The position numbers and the translations under genes are program-made. Shown here one piece after another: positions 2,146 through 9,190 of a DNA stretch of 13,909 nt. Below the pieces are notes generated by a model. That model was given only the letters and a program-made list of their open reading frames with translations, did not search any database and was not told the origin of the DNA. The stretch spans positions 1-13,909 of the forward strand of contig JBKHIT010000088.1 of assembly GCA_046538485.1 (NCBI GenBank), read 5' to 3'. This DNA is from Candidatus Brocadiia bacterium. GTDB taxonomy: Bacteria > Planctomycetota > Brocadiia > SM23-32. Every line of letters begins with the position of its first letter. Within the stretch, counting starts at the first letter, position 1.

Positions 2146-2180
2146 CGCATCCCGTATCCCGCATCTCGCATCACGTATTC
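2146..2180 (+). repeat. Heptamer array (CGYATCH) x5; degenerate copy D of the dispersed element
   Basis: cgcatcc cgtatcc cgcatct cgcatca cgtattc, preceded by TCAATC-N10-CATC as in copies A and C. Confidence 0.8.
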
Positions 2181-2951: not shown

Positions 2952-3147
2952 ATCCTTATCCTAAAAAAGCCTAAACCGCATTTCTCACGAGATAACTATG
3001 GGTGCGAACCATAACATGTCGTTGCTGGTCATTATTTTACACCTCAACTCTTCAGGAACCGCATCTAACGCCATATACGTCCCCATGTTTTGTCGTATCT
3101 AATTACCAACACTGCATTTGTTTTGGTCCGCTCCCATTACTTGGTTG

Positions 3148-5880
3148 TTAAAACCCCCAAAAGAGCTTCAGCTCTGCCATAGCACGCACAAATGAATTGT
3201 TGTCCTCTCGTGCAATACTGCGGACCACTTCGGCGTCCTCCAGCTTTGATACGGCATGCATGCGTACGGACCAGTCCTGGTCGTTACGCGCAATCCTTTC
3301 CAGCAAGCCCTGATCGGTGAGTTTTTTAACAGCGGATTCACGAGCGGACGCGCTTTCATCCTTCAGCGCCACGTCCGCAATGACATCCTGGTCCGTTACC
3401 CTTTCGACTGCGGCCGCTCTTACGCGTCCGTCTTCATCGTCGAGGGCGATTCGTTCAAGTACCGATTCATCCCCGACTTTCCGTACCGCCTCCAGCCGTA
3501 CCTCCCCGTCTTCGTCCTCTTTTGCTATGGACATGAGAAGGTTTTCATCGTTCACTCTTTCCACCGCCACGCGCCGCACGGCCGCGGCCGCATCTTCGGC
3601 TGCCACCTTTCGTACAACCCCCCGATCCTCAATCCTCTTAACCGCCGCAGATCGAACGCCGGGATCCTCATCATTCAATGCCATCTCGACAAGCCTGGCT
3701 TGGTCCGTAAGATTTTCAGCCGCGACGCGGCGCAGGGCGGCGACGTTTTCCATCGCTGCCAGTTTCTCGAAAAGCTCATCCCTGGACAGTCCCTCGGTCT
3801 CCACATATTGTTCGATAACCTCTGCTTCTCCAATCCTCTGTGCCGCGCTGTCGCGCATCTTTTCCGCCATGCGTATCTCGCGAGGCTTCCGGCGAGCTGA
3901 TTGTCGTCTTGGATACCGTTCAGGTCTCCGATGTCGGCGAGAGCTTCTCCGTCTTTCCCCCCTCAATCTGTCCTGAGCTTTTTCGTCGGCCTCCGCCGAC
4001 CTGCCCTGCCCTTTATCGTCGGCGTCCTTCGACCATTCCCGCACTTTTTCATCGGCATCCGTCGCAATCTCAATAAGCATGTTGAGGTCTTTGAGCCCGC
4101 GGACGGCGGAGCGGCGAATTGCCGGATTGTCTTCTTGTCGAAGGACGGCTTTAATGACGCTCTGGTCCGTCAGGTTTTTCGCCGCCTCGCTGCGCATTTC
4201 CGTATCATAGTCGCCCCGAACGATTTCGGTGAGCAGCTGCTGATCCGTAACGTGCTTCACCGCAAGGCGCCGCATCTGCTCATCCCGATGATGCTTTGTA
4301 ATATCCGCCATCTTTTCCCTGAAGTGCTCGTCCCTGATACCGATGGCGAATACGAAATCATCGCCCTGGCGCCACTGCCAGTCCTCTTCTCCAAGCGCCC
4401 GCAGCACGTCTTTTCCGCCATTATCCTCAAGGTTTTCACCGACCGAATATACGACGTCAAGTGAACGGTCATAGCGGAACAGTTCGCCGTCGTACGGATC
4501 CGTCGGTATCTTATCGAGATACCGCGGCACGAGCGCATCGAGGTTTTCCGGAAGATGTTTCTCGGACCGATGATATGCATGAAGAGCAACGATGAGACGG
4601 GTCGCTTTCAGTTCAGATTCCAGCTTCAACTTTTCTTGTAAGGTTCGGTCAAAAGCGCTCGCAAGCAGTGGTACACACATTCTTCCAAGAGGATTTGGAC
4701 GCAGGGGCAATTTAATTAAATTCACAATCCCTTGCGTATCCGGTTTTTCTGCATCTTTAAGCGTCAACTCCGCGTAGCACCGCTCGGAGTTAGCGATTAA
4801 TTCTCGAAACACGCCCGCAAGTGCCGCTTTTGTCCTGTTGCGATGCAGGACGTAACTGGAAATCCACCTGTTCTGCAGAGCCAGCTCAACTGGTCGCGGC
4901 AAGGATTGTCCGCCCGCCATTTCGATAATGTTTGCGGGATCCTCTGCAGCCGAGTCCAGTTGAATTGCCGTGAAGCGATATTCTCCCTTCATCGCATGCA
5001 CAAAGCCCGATTCCGCCGGGCTCAAATCTGCAAGCGTCTTGAAAAGTTTGTCGAGCTGTTTATCATTTAGCTCCGCATCATCCACCAGTTTTCGCGTCTC
5101 ATCAAGTCCTATCGCCTGCACGGCTATACCGACAAGGTAGTGAATAAGCGTGTTGGGATGGTTCTTTATCATATCTCCGAACCGAAGCAGGGTAACGCAT
5201 GCTTCGGTCGCCTCCTCATACTCTCCTTCGTTTCGACTGAACCTGGCTTTCACGGCCAGCAGCCTGGCCATATCCCGCCACTGACCCAGATAGGAATAAT
5301 GCGGAATTGGCTCCGTTTCCAGCGGAGCCAGACATACCTCCCGACGCACCCCCTCACGCAGGTGCTCGAACGTTTCGGCATTCCGCTCCAGCGTTCGCCG
5401 CACAAAGTCCTTTCCGAATGCACAATCATCCTTGAGATAATCTGTTACACATTCCTCATCGTGTTCAGCCGGCCAGTAACGTGCAGAGATAGCTTTCCCA
5501 AAAACAGTGAAGGCGTTTTCATCCGGCGCCACTTCGGGCCGATCGAGTTTCAGATCGGCCACATCCGGTGCAGGGGCGTCGCGCCCCCCGATGAAAACGT
5601 AAAGAATGGACGCCAGGATAAGGACACCTGTAGCTGCGCCAGCACCGATCAATATGTTTTTTATCACTTTTTTCATTCTGATCTGCCGCGTATCTGAATC
5701 CACAGTGGGAGGGTTTTGTGCATCGCCGGGGGATGTTGCATTACTTGTTTTGTCCACGCTGATTTCCGTTTCTGGCCCGGAGGGTTCTCCGTCGATTGAT
5801 GTGCACTTGTCTGCCGTTATGTGCAACCACAAAAGATAAGGAAACACGACTGTATACACTATAAGGAACGGGATATTCAC
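3148..5880 (-). CDS. Membrane-anchored protein: helical domain ending in a GspG/pseudopilin-C-terminal-like motif, fused to about 11 HEAT-like 26-aa repeats (start may be ATG 5676)
   Basis: 910-aa ORF; TM segment MKKVIKNILIGAGAATGVLILASILYVFIGG from Met69; motif ALHAYH...LPENLDALVPRYLDKIPTDPYDGELFRY...YSVGENLEDNGG; repeats of consensus DQxxLxxIAxxDxDxxVRxxAVx(K/R)LT. Confidence 0.85.
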   Translation of the reverse strand: MNIPFLIVYTVVFPYLLWLHITADKCTSIDGEPSGPETEISVDKTSNATSPGDAQNPPTVDSDTRQIRMKKVIKNILIGAGAATGVLILASILYVFIGGRDAPAPDVADLKLDRPEVAPDENAFTVFGKAISARYWPAEHDEECVTDYLKDDCAFGKDFVRRTLERNAETFEHLREGVRREVCLAPLETEPIPHYSYLGQWRDMARLLAVKARFSRNEGEYEEATEACVTLLRFGDMIKNHPNTLIHYLVGIAVQAIGLDETRKLVDDAELNDKQLDKLFKTLADLSPAESGFVHAMKGEYRFTAIQLDSAAEDPANIIEMAGGQSLPRPVELALQNRWISSYVLHRNRTKAALAGVFRELIANSERCYAELTLKDAEKPDTQGIVNLIKLPLRPNPLGRMCVPLLASAFDRTLQEKLKLESELKATRLIVALHAYHRSEKHLPENLDALVPRYLDKIPTDPYDGELFRYDRSLDVVYSVGENLEDNGGKDVLRALGEEDWQWRQGDDFVFAIGIRDEHFREKMADITKHHRDEQMRRLAVKHVTDQQLLTEIVRGDYDTEMRSEAAKNLTDQSVIKAVLRQEDNPAIRRSAVRGLKDLNMLIEIATDADEKVREWSKDADDKGQGRSAEADEKAQDRLRGERRRSSRRHRRPERYPRRQSARRKPREIRMAEKMRDSAAQRIGEAEVIEQYVETEGLSRDELFEKLAAMENVAALRRVAAENLTDQARLVEMALNDEDPGVRSAAVKRIEDRGVVRKVAAEDAAAAVRRVAVERVNDENLLMSIAKEDEDGEVRLEAVRKVGDESVLERIALDDEDGRVRAAAVERVTDQDVIADVALKDESASARESAVKKLTDQGLLERIARNDQDWSVRMHAVSKLEDAEVVRSIAREDNNSFVRAMAELKLFWGF

Positions 5881-6209: not shown

Positions 6210-6369
6210 CGTAATCGCTCCGTTGCCATTGGCTATCGACCTGTCCACAAATGTTGCTGTGTGCAGTATAACGTCGTTCGTGGTGAGTTTTCAGCAACAG
6301 CCGTTAAACATCCCTTCTCGTTCTTGCGATCCCCCCACCATGCCCGAGAGAGGAAAGTTGTAACTGGCC

Positions 6370-6474
6370 CCAGCGTCTCAATCCGTCCACCAGCATCACG
6401 CATCCCGCACCCCGCATCACGCATCCCGTATCCCGCATCTCGTATCCTGCACCCCCATCCCGCACCCCGCAACT
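6370..6474 (+). repeat. Dispersed element copy C: conserved leader + about 12 heptamers (CGYAYCH)
   Basis: ccagcgtctcaatccgtccaccagcatc matches the leaders at 9723 and 10571; heptamer array at 6392-6474. Confidence 0.85.
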
Positions 6475-6493
6475 CGTCGGGGATGTCCTCAGT

Positions 6494-6499
6494 TAACAT
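6494..6499 (+). promoter_or_regulatory. -10 box (TAACAT) of the IS circle-junction promoter
   Basis: Joining the right end to the left end at CAG gives TTGACA-aagggctacatagcagt(17 nt)-TAACAT. Confidence 0.75.
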
Positions 6500-6568
6500 G
6501 TAAGCCCTTCCCCCGATCCGTTAGTGTAAAAGTGAATCAATTTTACTTCAGACCAAGGAGGAAGAGCT

Positions 6569-7696
6569 ATGGGTAAGTGTAATGTTTCTCAGTGTGGAAA
6601 TAAATCAGAACAGATCGCCGATGATGCGGGAGATCACCCGGTCAGCATTGGGATGGATGTTCATAAGAAATCTGTTCATGTGGCCGTGTGTATAGATGGG
6701 CAAATAACCTCAACGTTTGTGATTGGCGGAGGAGAGGGGCCCTGCGGGACGCAGGCTGTGATAAGCTCCCTTGAATCTTTGAAATCCGAGAACCATCGCA
6801 TCGTCTATGAGGCTGGCCCCACCGGATACGAGCTGGCCCGTCGCCTCCAACAGGAAGGTTTCAATGCCTGGGTCATTGCTCCCGGCAAAACGCCCCGGGA
6901 GGCCAATCAGGGAAACAAATCCGACCAGATGGATGCCGCGGACCTGGCTTACTACCTTGATAAAGATATGCTGACGAAAGTTTCTATTCCGACCCGCCAG
7001 GAGGAAGCTGATCGGCAGGTAACGCGGTTGAGGGAACAGCTGCAACAGAAACTATCCTGCGTCAAGAATCAGATCAAGGGTTTTCTGCTTCAGCATAACA
7101 TAGCCGAGCCGGAGGGACTATCCCGGTGGAGCAACAAAGCGGTAAAGGAGCTGTCGGATATTGAGCTCTCGGAGGAGCTTCAGTTTTCTTTGAACATGCT
7201 GCTGGAGGAGCTGAAGGCAATGAAGCAGCGTCTGCGCAAGGTGAACAAAAAAATACGCGAGATGTCCCGGAGTGACCGGTATCGGGAAAAAGCCAGGATT
7301 GCACAGACTCATCCCGGGGTCGGTGAGATAACATCGATGACATTTCTGACCGAAATTTTTCGCCCCGGACGCTTTGATGTTCCTGGATCTGTATCCAAAT
7401 ACTCGGGTTTGGCTCCGCATGTAAGGGAAACTGGTGGCAATCGAATTGAAGGTGGGCGTCTGCCGGGTGGACGGAAAGGACTCAGGAGACTGCTGGTTCA
7501 GGCGGCTTGGGTGTGGATACGACATGACCCATGGGCCAGGGAGAAATACAAGCATCTTCTGAGCAACACAGGCGAATCGAACAAAGCGATAGTGGCGATG
7601 GCGCTGCGAATGGTGGTGAATCTTTGGTGCATGGTGACTCGCGGGGAAGAATATATTCAGGGAGGAACCCGGCAAAAAAAAGCAGAAGCGCAATAA
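6569..7696 (+). CDS. IS110 family transposase/recombinase (RuvC-like DEDD domain + Tnp20 domain)
   Basis: AAGGAGG RBS; IGMD30VHK, YE81AGPTG, KSD119QMD122A, PGVGEITS, YSGLAPHVRETGG, RRLLVQAAW, KAIVAMALR motifs. Confidence 0.96.
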   Translation: MGKCNVSQCGNKSEQIADDAGDHPVSIGMDVHKKSVHVAVCIDGQITSTFVIGGGEGPCGTQAVISSLESLKSENHRIVYEAGPTGYELARRLQQEGFNAWVIAPGKTPREANQGNKSDQMDAADLAYYLDKDMLTKVSIPTRQEEADRQVTRLREQLQQKLSCVKNQIKGFLLQHNIAEPEGLSRWSNKAVKELSDIELSEELQFSLNMLLEELKAMKQRLRKVNKKIREMSRSDRYREKARIAQTHPGVGEITSMTFLTEIFRPGRFDVPGSVSKYSGLAPHVRETGGNRIEGGRLPGGRKGLRRLLVQAAWVWIRHDPWAREKYKHLLSNTGESNKAIVAMALRMVVNLWCMVTRGEEYIQGGTRQKKAEAQ

Positions 7697-7789
7697 GGAG
7701 AGGATCAGATGTTTATGATGGACCGATAACAGACAGGACACATTCATCAATGAAGAAGCAAGAGTTCTGGCAACAGGCGAACAGATGGC

Positions 7790-7990
7790 ACATTTTCGAA
7801 GATGACCTCGCTCCGGCGCAGTTCCGCTGAGAACGTTCTTAGTTTGAGGCTCTTCACAGGCTGGATGTCGGATACATATCTTGTGGCTTGACCACGAATA
7901 GCAGCTGGAAGGATGCCGCTTTCGCTTTTGGCGTTGTCAAAGTTTTTGCAGAAAGGTAGATAGCTGGATTTTTTGCAAAATGTAACGTTT
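7790..7990 (+). ncRNA. Candidate bridge RNA / seekRNA in the IS right non-coding end (limits approximate)
   Basis: TCCGGCGC (7812-7819) is the reverse complement of the right target flank 8185-8192. ATAGCAG (7898-7904) equals the donor right-end/core sequence 8179-8185. Each abuts a hairpin (7820-7851; 7881-7897), and there is a further hairpin at about 7944-7980. Confidence 0.6.
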
Positions 7991-8075
7991 TGAATGGACG
8001 CAGACGATGACCACGATTTAAGGGAGCCACAGGCTTTCGTTTGAGGCGTCGTCTTCCCCATTCATTTTGATAAAA

Positions 8076-8186
8076 AGCAGCCCCACACGCGGGGGATGGT
8101 ATGGACGATTTGACAAAGGGCTACATAGCAGCAGCCCCACACGCGGGGGATGGTATGGACGATTTGACAAAGGGCTACATAGCAGC
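8076..8186 (+). repeat. Perfect 2 x 54-bp tandem duplication of the IS right end
   Basis: 8076-8129 is identical to 8130-8183 (agcagccccacacgcgggggatggtatggacgatttgacaaagggctacatagc). Confidence 0.97.
8164..8169 (+). promoter_or_regulatory. -35 box TTGACA in the IS right end (second copy at 8110-8115)
   Basis: Consensus -35 that lies 17 nt from TAACAT only in the circularised element. Confidence 0.75.
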
Positions 8187-8299
8187 GCCGGATAGTGCAG
8201 CAGGAAAAGCCGGGACATCCCTCTGGTATTTGCTTTACATATGGTCTTTGATTGAATAATTTGGCATGTGGTCAACTTTCGTTTTTTCAGGAACATACA

Positions 8300-9190
8300 A
8301 TGAAACCTCGCACCGGACGCAACGACCCGTGTCCCTGTGGCAGCGGGAAAAAATACAAGAAGTGCTGTCTGCCCGAAGACCGGAAAAAACCAGAACCAGA
8401 TTCTCCCCGAGATGCCTCACCTTCTCCCCCGGAACCAGCGCCCCCTGCACCGGAGACCGGCGAGGAGATAACGATCACGGCGGGTGCTCAGCAAATAGGA
8501 GAATTGGGATTTCTCTCGTGCATCTGCCTTGGCGTTTCACGCCAGTCCGGGCAGACCGATGAGGCCGGTACGCTTGTGGACCCGGATAAACTGTATGCGA
8601 CCCGGGATGCAGCGGAGAGAAAGGGGGAAAACCAAATCGGCGGAATGTCGCAAAAGGTACCCGCAGCGGCCAGGGAAGAAATTCGGGAATCCCTGCGGGA
8701 TCTGGGCTACATGCCCATCCGCCACATGGAGAAGGACTGCGCGGATTTCCAGGCAGAACTCCCGTCCTCCGGGGATGGCCCCCGCCCCAGATGTGGGCTG
8801 TGCGGCAATCTGATCGGGCTGACCAAAACCATGTGCTGCGATGAGTGGATCTGCGACGATGAAGGTGACTACGTCGTGTTTTCATACGCGCGCAACAGCT
8901 GTTATCGCAATCATCGAAGATACACCCTCTGCGGTTTGCACCACGCGGAAAGACACGACGGAGACTGGCAGGATTGCCAGCAATGCCGGGAAGATGTACT
9001 CAAAACAGAAATGTACGTCTGGCGGGGGACGAACGAATACAACTTTGAGAAACTTGACGATCCGCCCGATTTCGAACCCACCCACTGTGCGGAATGCGGC
9101 CAGCGGATCAACTTCGGCGAGGGAGGATTCTCCTTCAACGGTGATTCCTACAAATGTGATGAGTGCACCTCCTTTCCCGAATTAGGCTGA
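8300..9190 (+). CDS. SEC-C motif protein with C-terminal Cys/His-rich putative metal-binding domain
   Basis: ATG 8300 (AGGA upstream) gives [23 protein letters not shown]; Pro-rich linker; C-terminus CGLCG...CCDEWICDD...[21 protein letters not shown]...CQQC...CAECG...CDEC. Confidence 0.88.

Follow-up and report, generated by a model that had tools for sequence, protein, structure and literature searches.

A predicted bridge RNA/seekRNA in the non-coding right end of an IS1111-type element from a Candidatus Brocadiia bacterium

Introduction

The window analyzed here is a stretch of 13,909 nucleotides from a Candidatus Brocadiia bacterium (Planctomycetota; assembly GCA_046538485.1, contig JBKHIT010000088.1). 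It holds an intact IS110-family element of the IS1111 type, the only such insertion sequence (IS) in the window, at positions 6493-8185. The element consists of a left end of 76 nt, the gene of a 375-aa transposase, and a non-coding right end of 489 nt, or 435 nt without a duplication that it contains. The non-coding region 3' of the gene very probably encodes an RNA of about 115 nt on the + strand (7797-7911) that would guide the element's own DEDD recombinase. The evidence lies in a two-module structure that covaries among relatives, in guide positions that change together with the flanking DNA, and in a real empty target site.

RNAs of this kind have been described before. IS1111-type seekRNAs are reported from elements with a downstream non-coding region, sub-terminal inverted repeats, and a junction promoter, and they carry a segment matching the top strand 5' of one matching the bottom strand (PMC11187229). 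Bridge RNAs follow a two-loop logic with a shared core dinucleotide (PMC11208160), and in IS621 the handshake guides follow the top-strand guides (PMC11208158).

Organization of the element

The transposase has an N-terminal RuvC-like DEDD domain (PF01548, 8.9e-14, residues 27-176) and a C-terminal Tnp domain (PF02371, 3.6e-19, residues 243-328), and hence the domains of an IS110-family DEDD recombinase. In an alignment of the window's protein with 29 homologues, D30, E81, D119, and D122 are invariant across all 30 sequences. This catalytic D/E/D/D set is accompanied by the S/T-G of a G--P----S/T-G motif, which reads GLAPHVRETG in the window (T288-G289 in GLAP----TG); the nucleophile column holds S in 25/30 sequences and T in 5/30, and the protein carries the GL-P----S(t)G motif reported for IS1111 transposases. 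The length of 375 aa compares with 356-364 aa in close relatives and with the 330-350 aa expected of the IS1111 clade. Identity to any protein found is 62% at most. The closest protein relatives, P0002-P0007 (53-62% identity), lie outside the DNA comparison reported below, which uses relatives at 25-46% identity.

The ends of the element are confirmed by an uninterrupted target, ...GATGTCCT|CAG|CGCCGGATAG, on a metagenome contig. On this contig of run X2 (depth 37.3), position 6429 is joined to 8183 with 12 letters, CGGAGATGTCCT, in between, and the sequence reads ...GATGTCCT|CAGCGCCGGATAG. The empty target that an initial annotation, made from the window's letters alone, had reconstructed is therefore real; the string spanning the insertion point is GATGTCCTCAGCGCCGGATAG. 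In the occupied site, the left junction reads GGGGATGTCCT-CAG-TTAACATG (6479-6500) and the right junction CTACATAG-CAG-CGCCGGA (8175-8192), and the circle junction expected from the joined ends is ...CTACATAGCAG|TTAACATG. Such joining would create a promoter composed of TTGACA (8164-8169), 17 nt, and TAACAT (6494-6499).

Sub-terminal inverted repeats, ATGTAAGCCCTT (6498-6509) and AAGGGCTACAT (8170-8180), match at 11 bases with one extra base and are likewise found in relatives. The element thereby shows two marks of the IS1111 group, namely sub-terminal inverted repeats of 7-17 bp with short terminal extensions and a long non-coding region downstream of the transposase gene. No further copy was found in its own genome assembly, in which it is single-copy. 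A search for a syntenic empty site in 40 relatives gave none; what matched was confined to the heptad repeats and a brief conserved part of the downstream gene. The features are collected in Table 1.

Table 1. Features of the element, its RNA, and its flanks (window positions)
Feature	Position	Strand	Basis or remark
Left target flank (LT) GGGGATGTCCT	6479..6489	+	Empty-site contig of run X2: ...GATGTCCT immediately precedes 8183
Left copy of the shared CAG	6490..6492	+	Core AG (6491-6492) favoured by family comparison
IS left end (right donor, RD)	6493..6568	+	-10 box TAACAT 6494-6499; sub-terminal inverted repeat ATGTAAGCCCTT 6498-6509
Transposase / bridge recombinase, 375 aa	6569..7696	+	Pfam PF01548 and PF02371; alignment
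Predicted bridge/seekRNA, target module then donor module	7797..7911	+	Covariance model R1, 86 bits, E 3.6e-19; helix covariation
Outer stem of target module, 5' strand	7798..7809	+	Contains GATGACCTC; T7803 and A7805 bulged
Right-target guide (RTG) UCCGGCGC (DNA TCCGGCGC)	7812..7819	+	Pairs with top-strand G8185 + CGCCGGA (8186-8192), 8/8
Inner hairpin 1, GUUC / GAAC, loop CGCUGA	7821..7834	+	Helix 2: 4/4 pairs changed on both sides
Left-target guide (LTG) GUUCUUAG (DNA GTTCTTAG)	7835..7842	+	Against GTCCTCAG: 6 Watson-Crick pairs and 2 G.U wobbles
Handshake-like UU	7843..7844	+	Equals the TT opening the IS left end (6493-6494)
Outer stem, 3' strand GAGGCUCUUC	7846..7855	+	Overlaps CTTCACAG; compensatory changes
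Right-donor guide (RDG), homologous position CAUAUC (DNA CATATC)	7875..7880	+	3/6 match to the reverse complement of G+TTAAC
Inner hairpin 2, GUGG / CCAC, loop CUUGA	7883..7895	+	Helix 3 covariation
Left-donor guide (LDG) AAUAGCAG	7897..7904	+	7898-7904 (ATAGCAG) equals the last 7 right-end bases
Handshake-like C	7905..7905	+	Identical to C8186, with which the right target flank begins
First copy of the duplicated 54-bp right end	8078..8131	+	Depth doubled in run X1; single-copy in run X2
Second copy, functional right end (left donor, LD)	8132..8185	+	-35 box TTGACA 8164-8169; inverted repeat AAGGGCTACAT 8170-8180; core copy 8183-8185
Right target flank (RT) CGCCGGATAGT	8186..8196	+	Junction reading and empty-site contig of run X2

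A conserved two-module RNA

The non-coding region 3' of the open reading frame (ORF) can be aligned with those of 11 relatives whose transposases are 39-46% identical. The consensus begins with an outer stem (GATGACCAC...GTGGC), within which one hairpin stands between two variable stretches; after the stem come a linker, another hairpin, and an invariant AATAGCAG. The target module spans 7798-7855, its outer stem enclosing an internal loop. A covariance model, R1, was built from the 11 relatives, hairpin 1 being added by hand. At E<=1 it found 46 matches in 100 sources, 26 of them with E<1e-4 and 45 on the + strand, and wherever an ORF was mapped the match sits immediately 3' of the transposase ORF. 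A further 63 sources yielded 13 weak matches.

All three helices of the RNA covary. Pairing fills 89.7% of cells in the R1 alignment against 67.8% in shuffles, with 18/19 pairs varying on both sides, and it amounts to only 27-49% when the partners are slid; the alignment was fitted to the model, so these values are biased towards the structure. RNAalifold, applied to an independent, trimmed MAFFT alignment, returned the outer stem and hairpin 2, and 10/15 pairs were compensated. The G-U pairs in the helices are compatible with transcription of the + strand only. A conserved structured RNA in the non-coding end is what is expected of a bridge RNA or seekRNA. The initial annotation had placed an RNA of this type, with a target and a donor module, in the right end and had named a covariance model as a check; the conserved two-module RNA that the model delineates at 7797-7911, at 86 bits and with covarying helices, supports that proposal.

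No terminator-like site was found on the + strand within 7697-8080, and the only promoter-like match inside the non-coding region is a weak one (TTCACA-18-TATCTT, 7853-7882), 1.4 being expected by chance. Folds of individual sequences give a closing stem for the donor module in some relatives (L081, L087, and L007), though these stems share no position, and they give none in the window.

One relative, on a Planctomycetaceae chromosome (L004), has two model matches after its transposase, at 2658-2797 and 3093-3204. The second is weak and overlaps the right end, and about 400 nt lie between RNA and right end.

Target guides and the core

For the comparison of guides with DNA, four loop strands per match were taken from the model alignment. 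Left ends of relatives were found via the inverted repeat and the -10 box, and right ends were located as the next copy of the 7 bases after hairpin 2.

The 5' strand of loop 1 follows the right flank. Compared with the reverse complement of core plus right flank, it gives a mean longest run of 6.79 nt (n=28) against 3.10 nt in 752 mismatched pairs; runs of at least 7 nt occur in 18/28 elements against 2/752 mismatched pairs, and 0/5000 permutations attain the observed mean. This agrees with the initial annotation, which had taken TCCGGCGC for the right-target guide. The 3' strand of the same loop follows left flank plus core, with a mean longest run of 5.46 nt (n=24) against 3.13 nt, and in a fixed register it makes 4.0/6 Watson-Crick pairs against 1.76; neither value was reached in 5000 permutations. 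The window has 4 Watson-Crick pairs and 2 wobbles among these six. Over the full guide, both mismatches are a U opposite a bottom-strand G, and therefore all eight positions can pair.

The two strands form a target loop with guides that overlap at the core, as in bridge RNAs and seekRNAs. Their order is that of the IS1111 type, the top-strand match (7812-7819) lying 5' of the bottom-strand match (7835-7842), and it is identical in all aligned relatives. The core dinucleotide of the RNA equals that of the DNA in 25/25 elements (AG in 15, AA in 10), and the base preceding it varies among the relatives' left flanks. In 24/25 elements, the two RNA bases after the core are the first two bases of the left end (TT, AT, GT, or TC).

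Two unoccupied sites in the genome, both GTTCTCAG|CGCCGGATATG (contig C67 at 184588 and contig C110 at 36002), suit both guides with one wobble, and do so better than the occupied site. In run X2, where the window locus is empty, a single-copy right end is followed by CGCCGGATAT, unlike the flank in the window (...ATAG). These unoccupied sites and the alternative flank lend independent support to the left-target guide at 7835-7842.

The two unoccupied sites read AGCGTTCTCAGCGCCGGATATG and have about 22 nt plus further downstream bases in common; the one on C110 lies just upstream of a long minus-strand ORF. CTCAGCG, which spans the target core, has its reverse complement in the string CGCTGAG (7825-7831); that string is part of the semi-conserved loop of hairpin 1 and was set aside as a coincidence.

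Donor guides and handshake-like positions

An exact copy of the element's own LDG 7-mer stands at the right end in 31/33 loci, always behind a TTGAC box; the two exceptions are L087, with one mismatch, and L010, whose right end is truncated. The 7-mer falls into classes that shift jointly in RNA and right end, namely ATAGCAG in 15 loci, ATAAGAA in 8, ATATCAG in 7, and ATAGGAA in 3. ATAGCAG had been proposed as the guide for donor left flank plus core, and this co-variation in four classes upholds it.

The RDG was compared in a register of 6 bases ending 2 nt before hairpin 2, set against the reverse complement of the last core base plus left-end bases 1-5 (RD1-5). In 16 elements the match is 4.19/6 against 3.04 (0/5000 permutations), and the position opposite RD1 matches in just 4/16. 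The TATC that the initial annotation had offered as a donor guide thus occupies the register that in relatives pairs with the IS left end, but the six-base match in the window is weak (3/6). Complementarity of the putative donor loop to the IS ends is seen for the LDG in the window itself but for the RDG at family level; a closing stem was not located. Pairing of UACAU (7873-7877) with left-end bases 6-10 is a candidate for an alternative donor contact.

The base after the core in the LDG matches the first base of the right flank in 13/24 elements, against a permutation mean of 6.9 (0/5000 permutations), and in all six cases in which it is not A it matches the flank. The signal is confined to this first base, the second giving 8/24 and no signal.

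CTGGA, remarked on in the initial annotation as following both modules, does occur at 7861-7865 and 7905-7909, and AGCTGGA lies at 7962-7968 in the loop of a 7-bp stem (7944-7950/7974-7980). The copy at 7905-7909 has a semi-conserved counterpart in the consensus (nnnGA, following the donor guide), while the module-1 CTGGA and AGCTGGA have no counterpart in relatives.

Work on IS621, ISEc11, and ISPa11 suggests how such an element would operate. Excision would produce the circle junction and with it the TTGACA-17 nt-TAACAT promoter, which would drive the transposase and then the RNA; the RNA-protein complex would unite circle junction and target, with strand exchange at the 2-nt core.

Population variants

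All runs were compared as contigs. A variant in run X3 differs at the far end of the RTG (7812 T>A, 7813 C>A), has lost one base at 7797, and carries 7887 C>T in a loop; this natural variation of the RTG is suggestive only as a sign of a reprogrammable guide. A piece from run X5 covering 7239-8095 shows 31 differences, and among the 21 listed, 17 fall in the spacer 7927-8031, 3 in the ORF, and 1 in an RNA loop (7887). Such a pattern would be expected if the RNA is under selection and the spacer drifts.

Alternative explanations

Several observations count against a guide RNA at 7797-7911 or narrow what the comparison can carry. A scan of 6300-8400 against Rfam 15 returned no match at E<=10 except a chance DnaX, folding of 7780-7990 as a single sequence was no better than shuffles (z = 0.24), and no closing stem of the donor module conserved across relatives was found. 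None of the runs listed as holding the element is recorded as RNA. The window's own LTG match has a longest exact run of 2 nt and relies on its two U.G wobbles; its RDG match of 3/6 falls entirely on positions that are nearly invariant in the family; and RTG runs do not exceed 4 nt in 4/28 elements (L081, L041, L009, and L005). The permutation tests treat related elements as independent, so their counts overstate the significance, although the effect sizes are still large. The LDG test is partly circular in that the donor 7-mer was used to search for right ends. The finding is strong nonetheless, because a given 7-mer is expected only about 0.04 times per 700 nt. That search has no bearing on the TTGAC box, the inverted repeat, or the flank-guide match. 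Exact matches in the window alone do not exceed chance: within the 435-nt non-coding region, a target match of at least 8 nt arose in 56/300 shuffles and a donor match of at least 7 nt in 184/300, and it is comparison with relatives that makes part of the initial annotation significant.

A different guide map was drawn in the initial annotation, with CTTCACAG or, alternatively, GATGACCTC as the left-target guide, a hairpin at 7820-7851, and a 3-nt CAG core. Its strings are all where it placed them (GATGACCTC at 7801-7809, TCCGGCGC at 7812-7819, CTTCACAG at 7852-7859, TATC at 7877-7880, and ATAGCAG at 7898-7904). GATGACCTC agrees with the left flank at 8/9 positions, CTTCACAG terminates in CAG, and CAG stands at both junctions and once in the empty site, which is compatible with a 3-nt overlap in this one element. 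The relatives make this layout very improbable. Position 7801-7809 is the 5' strand of the outer stem, paired with 7846-7855 and showing compensatory changes, and its consensus stays near-invariant (GATGACCAC) despite unrelated targets. Of CTTCACAG, the first four letters (CTTC) belong to the outer stem and the rest (ACAG) to the linker. Homologues of neither string follow the left flanks (3.38 against 3.07 for GATGACCTC, 244/5000 permutations; 3.33 against 3.27 for CTTCACAG, 1981/5000). The two unoccupied look-alike sites have another left flank (...GCGTTCTCAG) that fits GUUCUUAG and not GATGACCTC, and the 8/9 likeness, being missing from both, is taken as a coincidence. The supposed hairpin resolves into a short hairpin at 7821-7834, a single-stranded guide at 7835-7845, and the start of the outer stem. 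As for the core, the base before AG is variable in the relatives' left flanks, and all 25 elements show 2 nt (AG or AA). Covariation of guides with flanks, the check that the initial annotation itself had named, is thus found for TCCGGCGC, ATAGCAG, and the TATC register and lacking for CTTCACAG and GATGACCTC; judged by the relatives, that map is half right, and the left-target guide is elsewhere, at 7835-7842.

The region might instead be a cis-acting element, such as a stability or terminator element in the 3' part of the mRNA, or a protein-binding DNA site, with incidental guide matches. The lack of a run recorded as RNA among the listed holders, window-only matches within chance, and a single-sequence fold that is not significant would all sit well with this, and yet we regard it as extremely improbable. 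The hypervariable positions are the loop strands and not the stems, and they track each element's own flanks (0/5000 in four separate tests); the + strand of 7697-8080 offers no terminator-like site; and the arrangement equals that of the experimentally shown IS1111-type seekRNAs (PMC11187229).

It is unlikely, too, that the RNA is a genuine bridge RNA by descent in a copy that is decaying and has lost its mobility. Such a history would account for the 3/6 match of the RDG to the left end, the tandem duplication of the right end, the single copy in the assembly, and a spacer of 274 nt between RNA and right end that holds a degenerate right-end-like stretch, against about 52-127 nt in relatives. 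The ORF is intact, however, with its catalytic residues present, and the cognate target still flanks the outer right end. The insertion is polymorphic, the empty site of run X2 having depth 37 and the IS contigs depth 11-25, and in the same run a right end lies beside the different flank CGCCGGATAT. Variants conserve the RNA while the spacer drifts. A functional guide RNA for the element's own recombinase remains the reading that we favour.

Relation to known systems and significance

The RNA appears, from its comparison with relatives, to be a real bridge RNA/seekRNA of a kind already known. The initial annotation had spoken of a new bridge recombinase system, which overstates the case, the arrangement being the IS1111-type one of PMC11187229 and PMC11208160. 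With the elements whose seekRNAs were described by Siddiquee et al. 2024 (ISEc11, ISPa11, ISKpn4, and ISPst6; PMC11187229), it shares a DEDD transposase, a long downstream non-coding region, sub-terminal inverted repeats, a promoter formed at the circle junction, and a top-strand-complementary segment 5' of a bottom-strand one, the two overlapping at the insertion point. Its target module of about 60 nt resembles the short seekRNA and both modules together the long form. It differs from those elements in its transposase (375 aa, and 356-364 aa in close relatives, against 330-350 aa) and in its targets, and the likeness of the RNAs concerns their arrangement. The donor guides and handshake-like positions described here do not figure in the accessible part of the seekRNA description.

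With the bridge RNA of IS621 (Durrant et al. 2024, PMC11208160; Hiraizumi et al. 2024, PMC11208158), the predicted RNA shares a target loop and a candidate donor loop, two guides per loop on opposite strands that overlap at a 2-nt core, and bases 3' of the 3' guide that match non-cognate DNA, as the dinucleotide of the handshake guide does. Core (CT) and guide order here agree with those of IS621 once the opposite strand is read. Unlike in IS621, the RNA lies 3' of the gene and not 5', the guides stand in reverse order when read in the element's own frame, and the handshake-like bases come after the bottom-strand guides. The element further differs from IS621 in its long sub-terminal inverted repeats, in a candidate nucleophile that is Thr and not Ser, and in its distantly related protein.

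Read on the opposite strand, the order of left guide, hairpin, right guide, and handshake, with core CT, is the IS621 layout, so that the gene body would be inverted relative to the crossover site. The comparison suggests that IS1111-type and IS621-type RNAs share one geometry. It is quite possible, if somewhat short of probable, that IS1111-type bridge RNAs are the exact mirror image of the IS621 bridge RNA. Such a mirror image would have, on the opposite strand, a CT (or TT) core, a left guide of 7+2 nt, an inner hairpin, a right guide of 2+6 nt, and, in each of the two loops, a handshake guide of two bases. On that view, the 'reversed order' of IS1111 seekRNAs would stem from a gene body inverted relative to the crossover site and not from a different mechanism, and the bottom strand would be predicted to be exchanged first in the element's own frame. 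The element would add a compact recombinase that has Thr as its candidate nucleophile, together with a 115-nt RNA whose guides vary naturally. The literature searched contains no description of handshake positions in IS1111-type RNAs; Extended Data Fig. 10 of PMC11208160 may already show the mirror-image relation.

R1 was also run on four named elements: ISSso6, ISEc45, a Klebsiella IS110-family element, and a Tritonibacter element. With default filters, it found nothing at E<=1 in them; with filters off, the only match was in ISSso6, an IS110-family element of a Shigella sonnei plasmid with 29% protein identity, where it lies 3' of the transposase (L160:2384-2487) and, at 9.4 bits and E 0.14, below significance. 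There, hairpin 2 is followed by the donor guide AAUAUCAG, which equals the right end TTGACACGGAAAGTCATATCAG and belongs to the ATATCAG class of seven relatives. The target module of ISSso6 gave no convincing alignment, and its candidate right-target guide mismatches the flank of that copy.

The general understanding of how such systems work is unchanged by these results. What they provide is a map for experiments, comprising guides, stems, core, handshake-like positions, a verified empty target, and a junction promoter. The corrected guide positions matter in practice, since mutating the left-target guide of the initial annotation would hit a structural stem. In addition, guides and flanks correspond across about 30 elements of several phyla, which defines an RNA family that Rfam lacks.

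Further observations at the ends and in the flanks

The 54-bp right end is perfectly duplicated in tandem (8076-8186), as two units of CAG plus 51 nt, then CAG plus target. In run X1, the repeat unitig has a depth of 57.6 against about 28-29 in the flanks, and a 57-mer across the copy-to-copy junction has a depth of 29.2. The duplication could have arisen either by slippage on 3 nt of homology or by exchange at an internal AAAAAG-CAG-CCCC site; that site is unlike the guides. Upstream of it, at 7930-7966, GTTGTCAAAG...GGTAGATAGCTG is similar to the right end TTTGACAAAGGGCTACATAGCAG apart from an 11-nt insertion and overlaps the 7944-7980 hairpin. This stretch sits where relatives have their right end, about 55 nt past the RNA, and could be an earlier right end that has since decayed.

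About 11 heptad repeats (GCATCCC, 6393-6471) adjoin the insertion on the left. The array varies in length between runs, with a joint going back 53 and different letters in run X2, and similar arrays occur at window 2146-2172 and on several contigs of one relative (G005). The inverted repeats GGGGATGTCC and GGACATCCC (6479-6488 with 8213-8221) would form a 9-bp stem around the insertion point in the empty site, and the element therefore inserted within hairpin-forming intergenic sequence between two divergent genes.

In two relatives, L084 (1386-1420) and L008 (2700-2740), the right end abuts the left end via a single copy of the core, the abutting ends reading ...CATAGCAG|GTAATATG and ...CATAAGAA|ATACCATG, respectively. 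They represent either tandem copies or an assembled circle junction.

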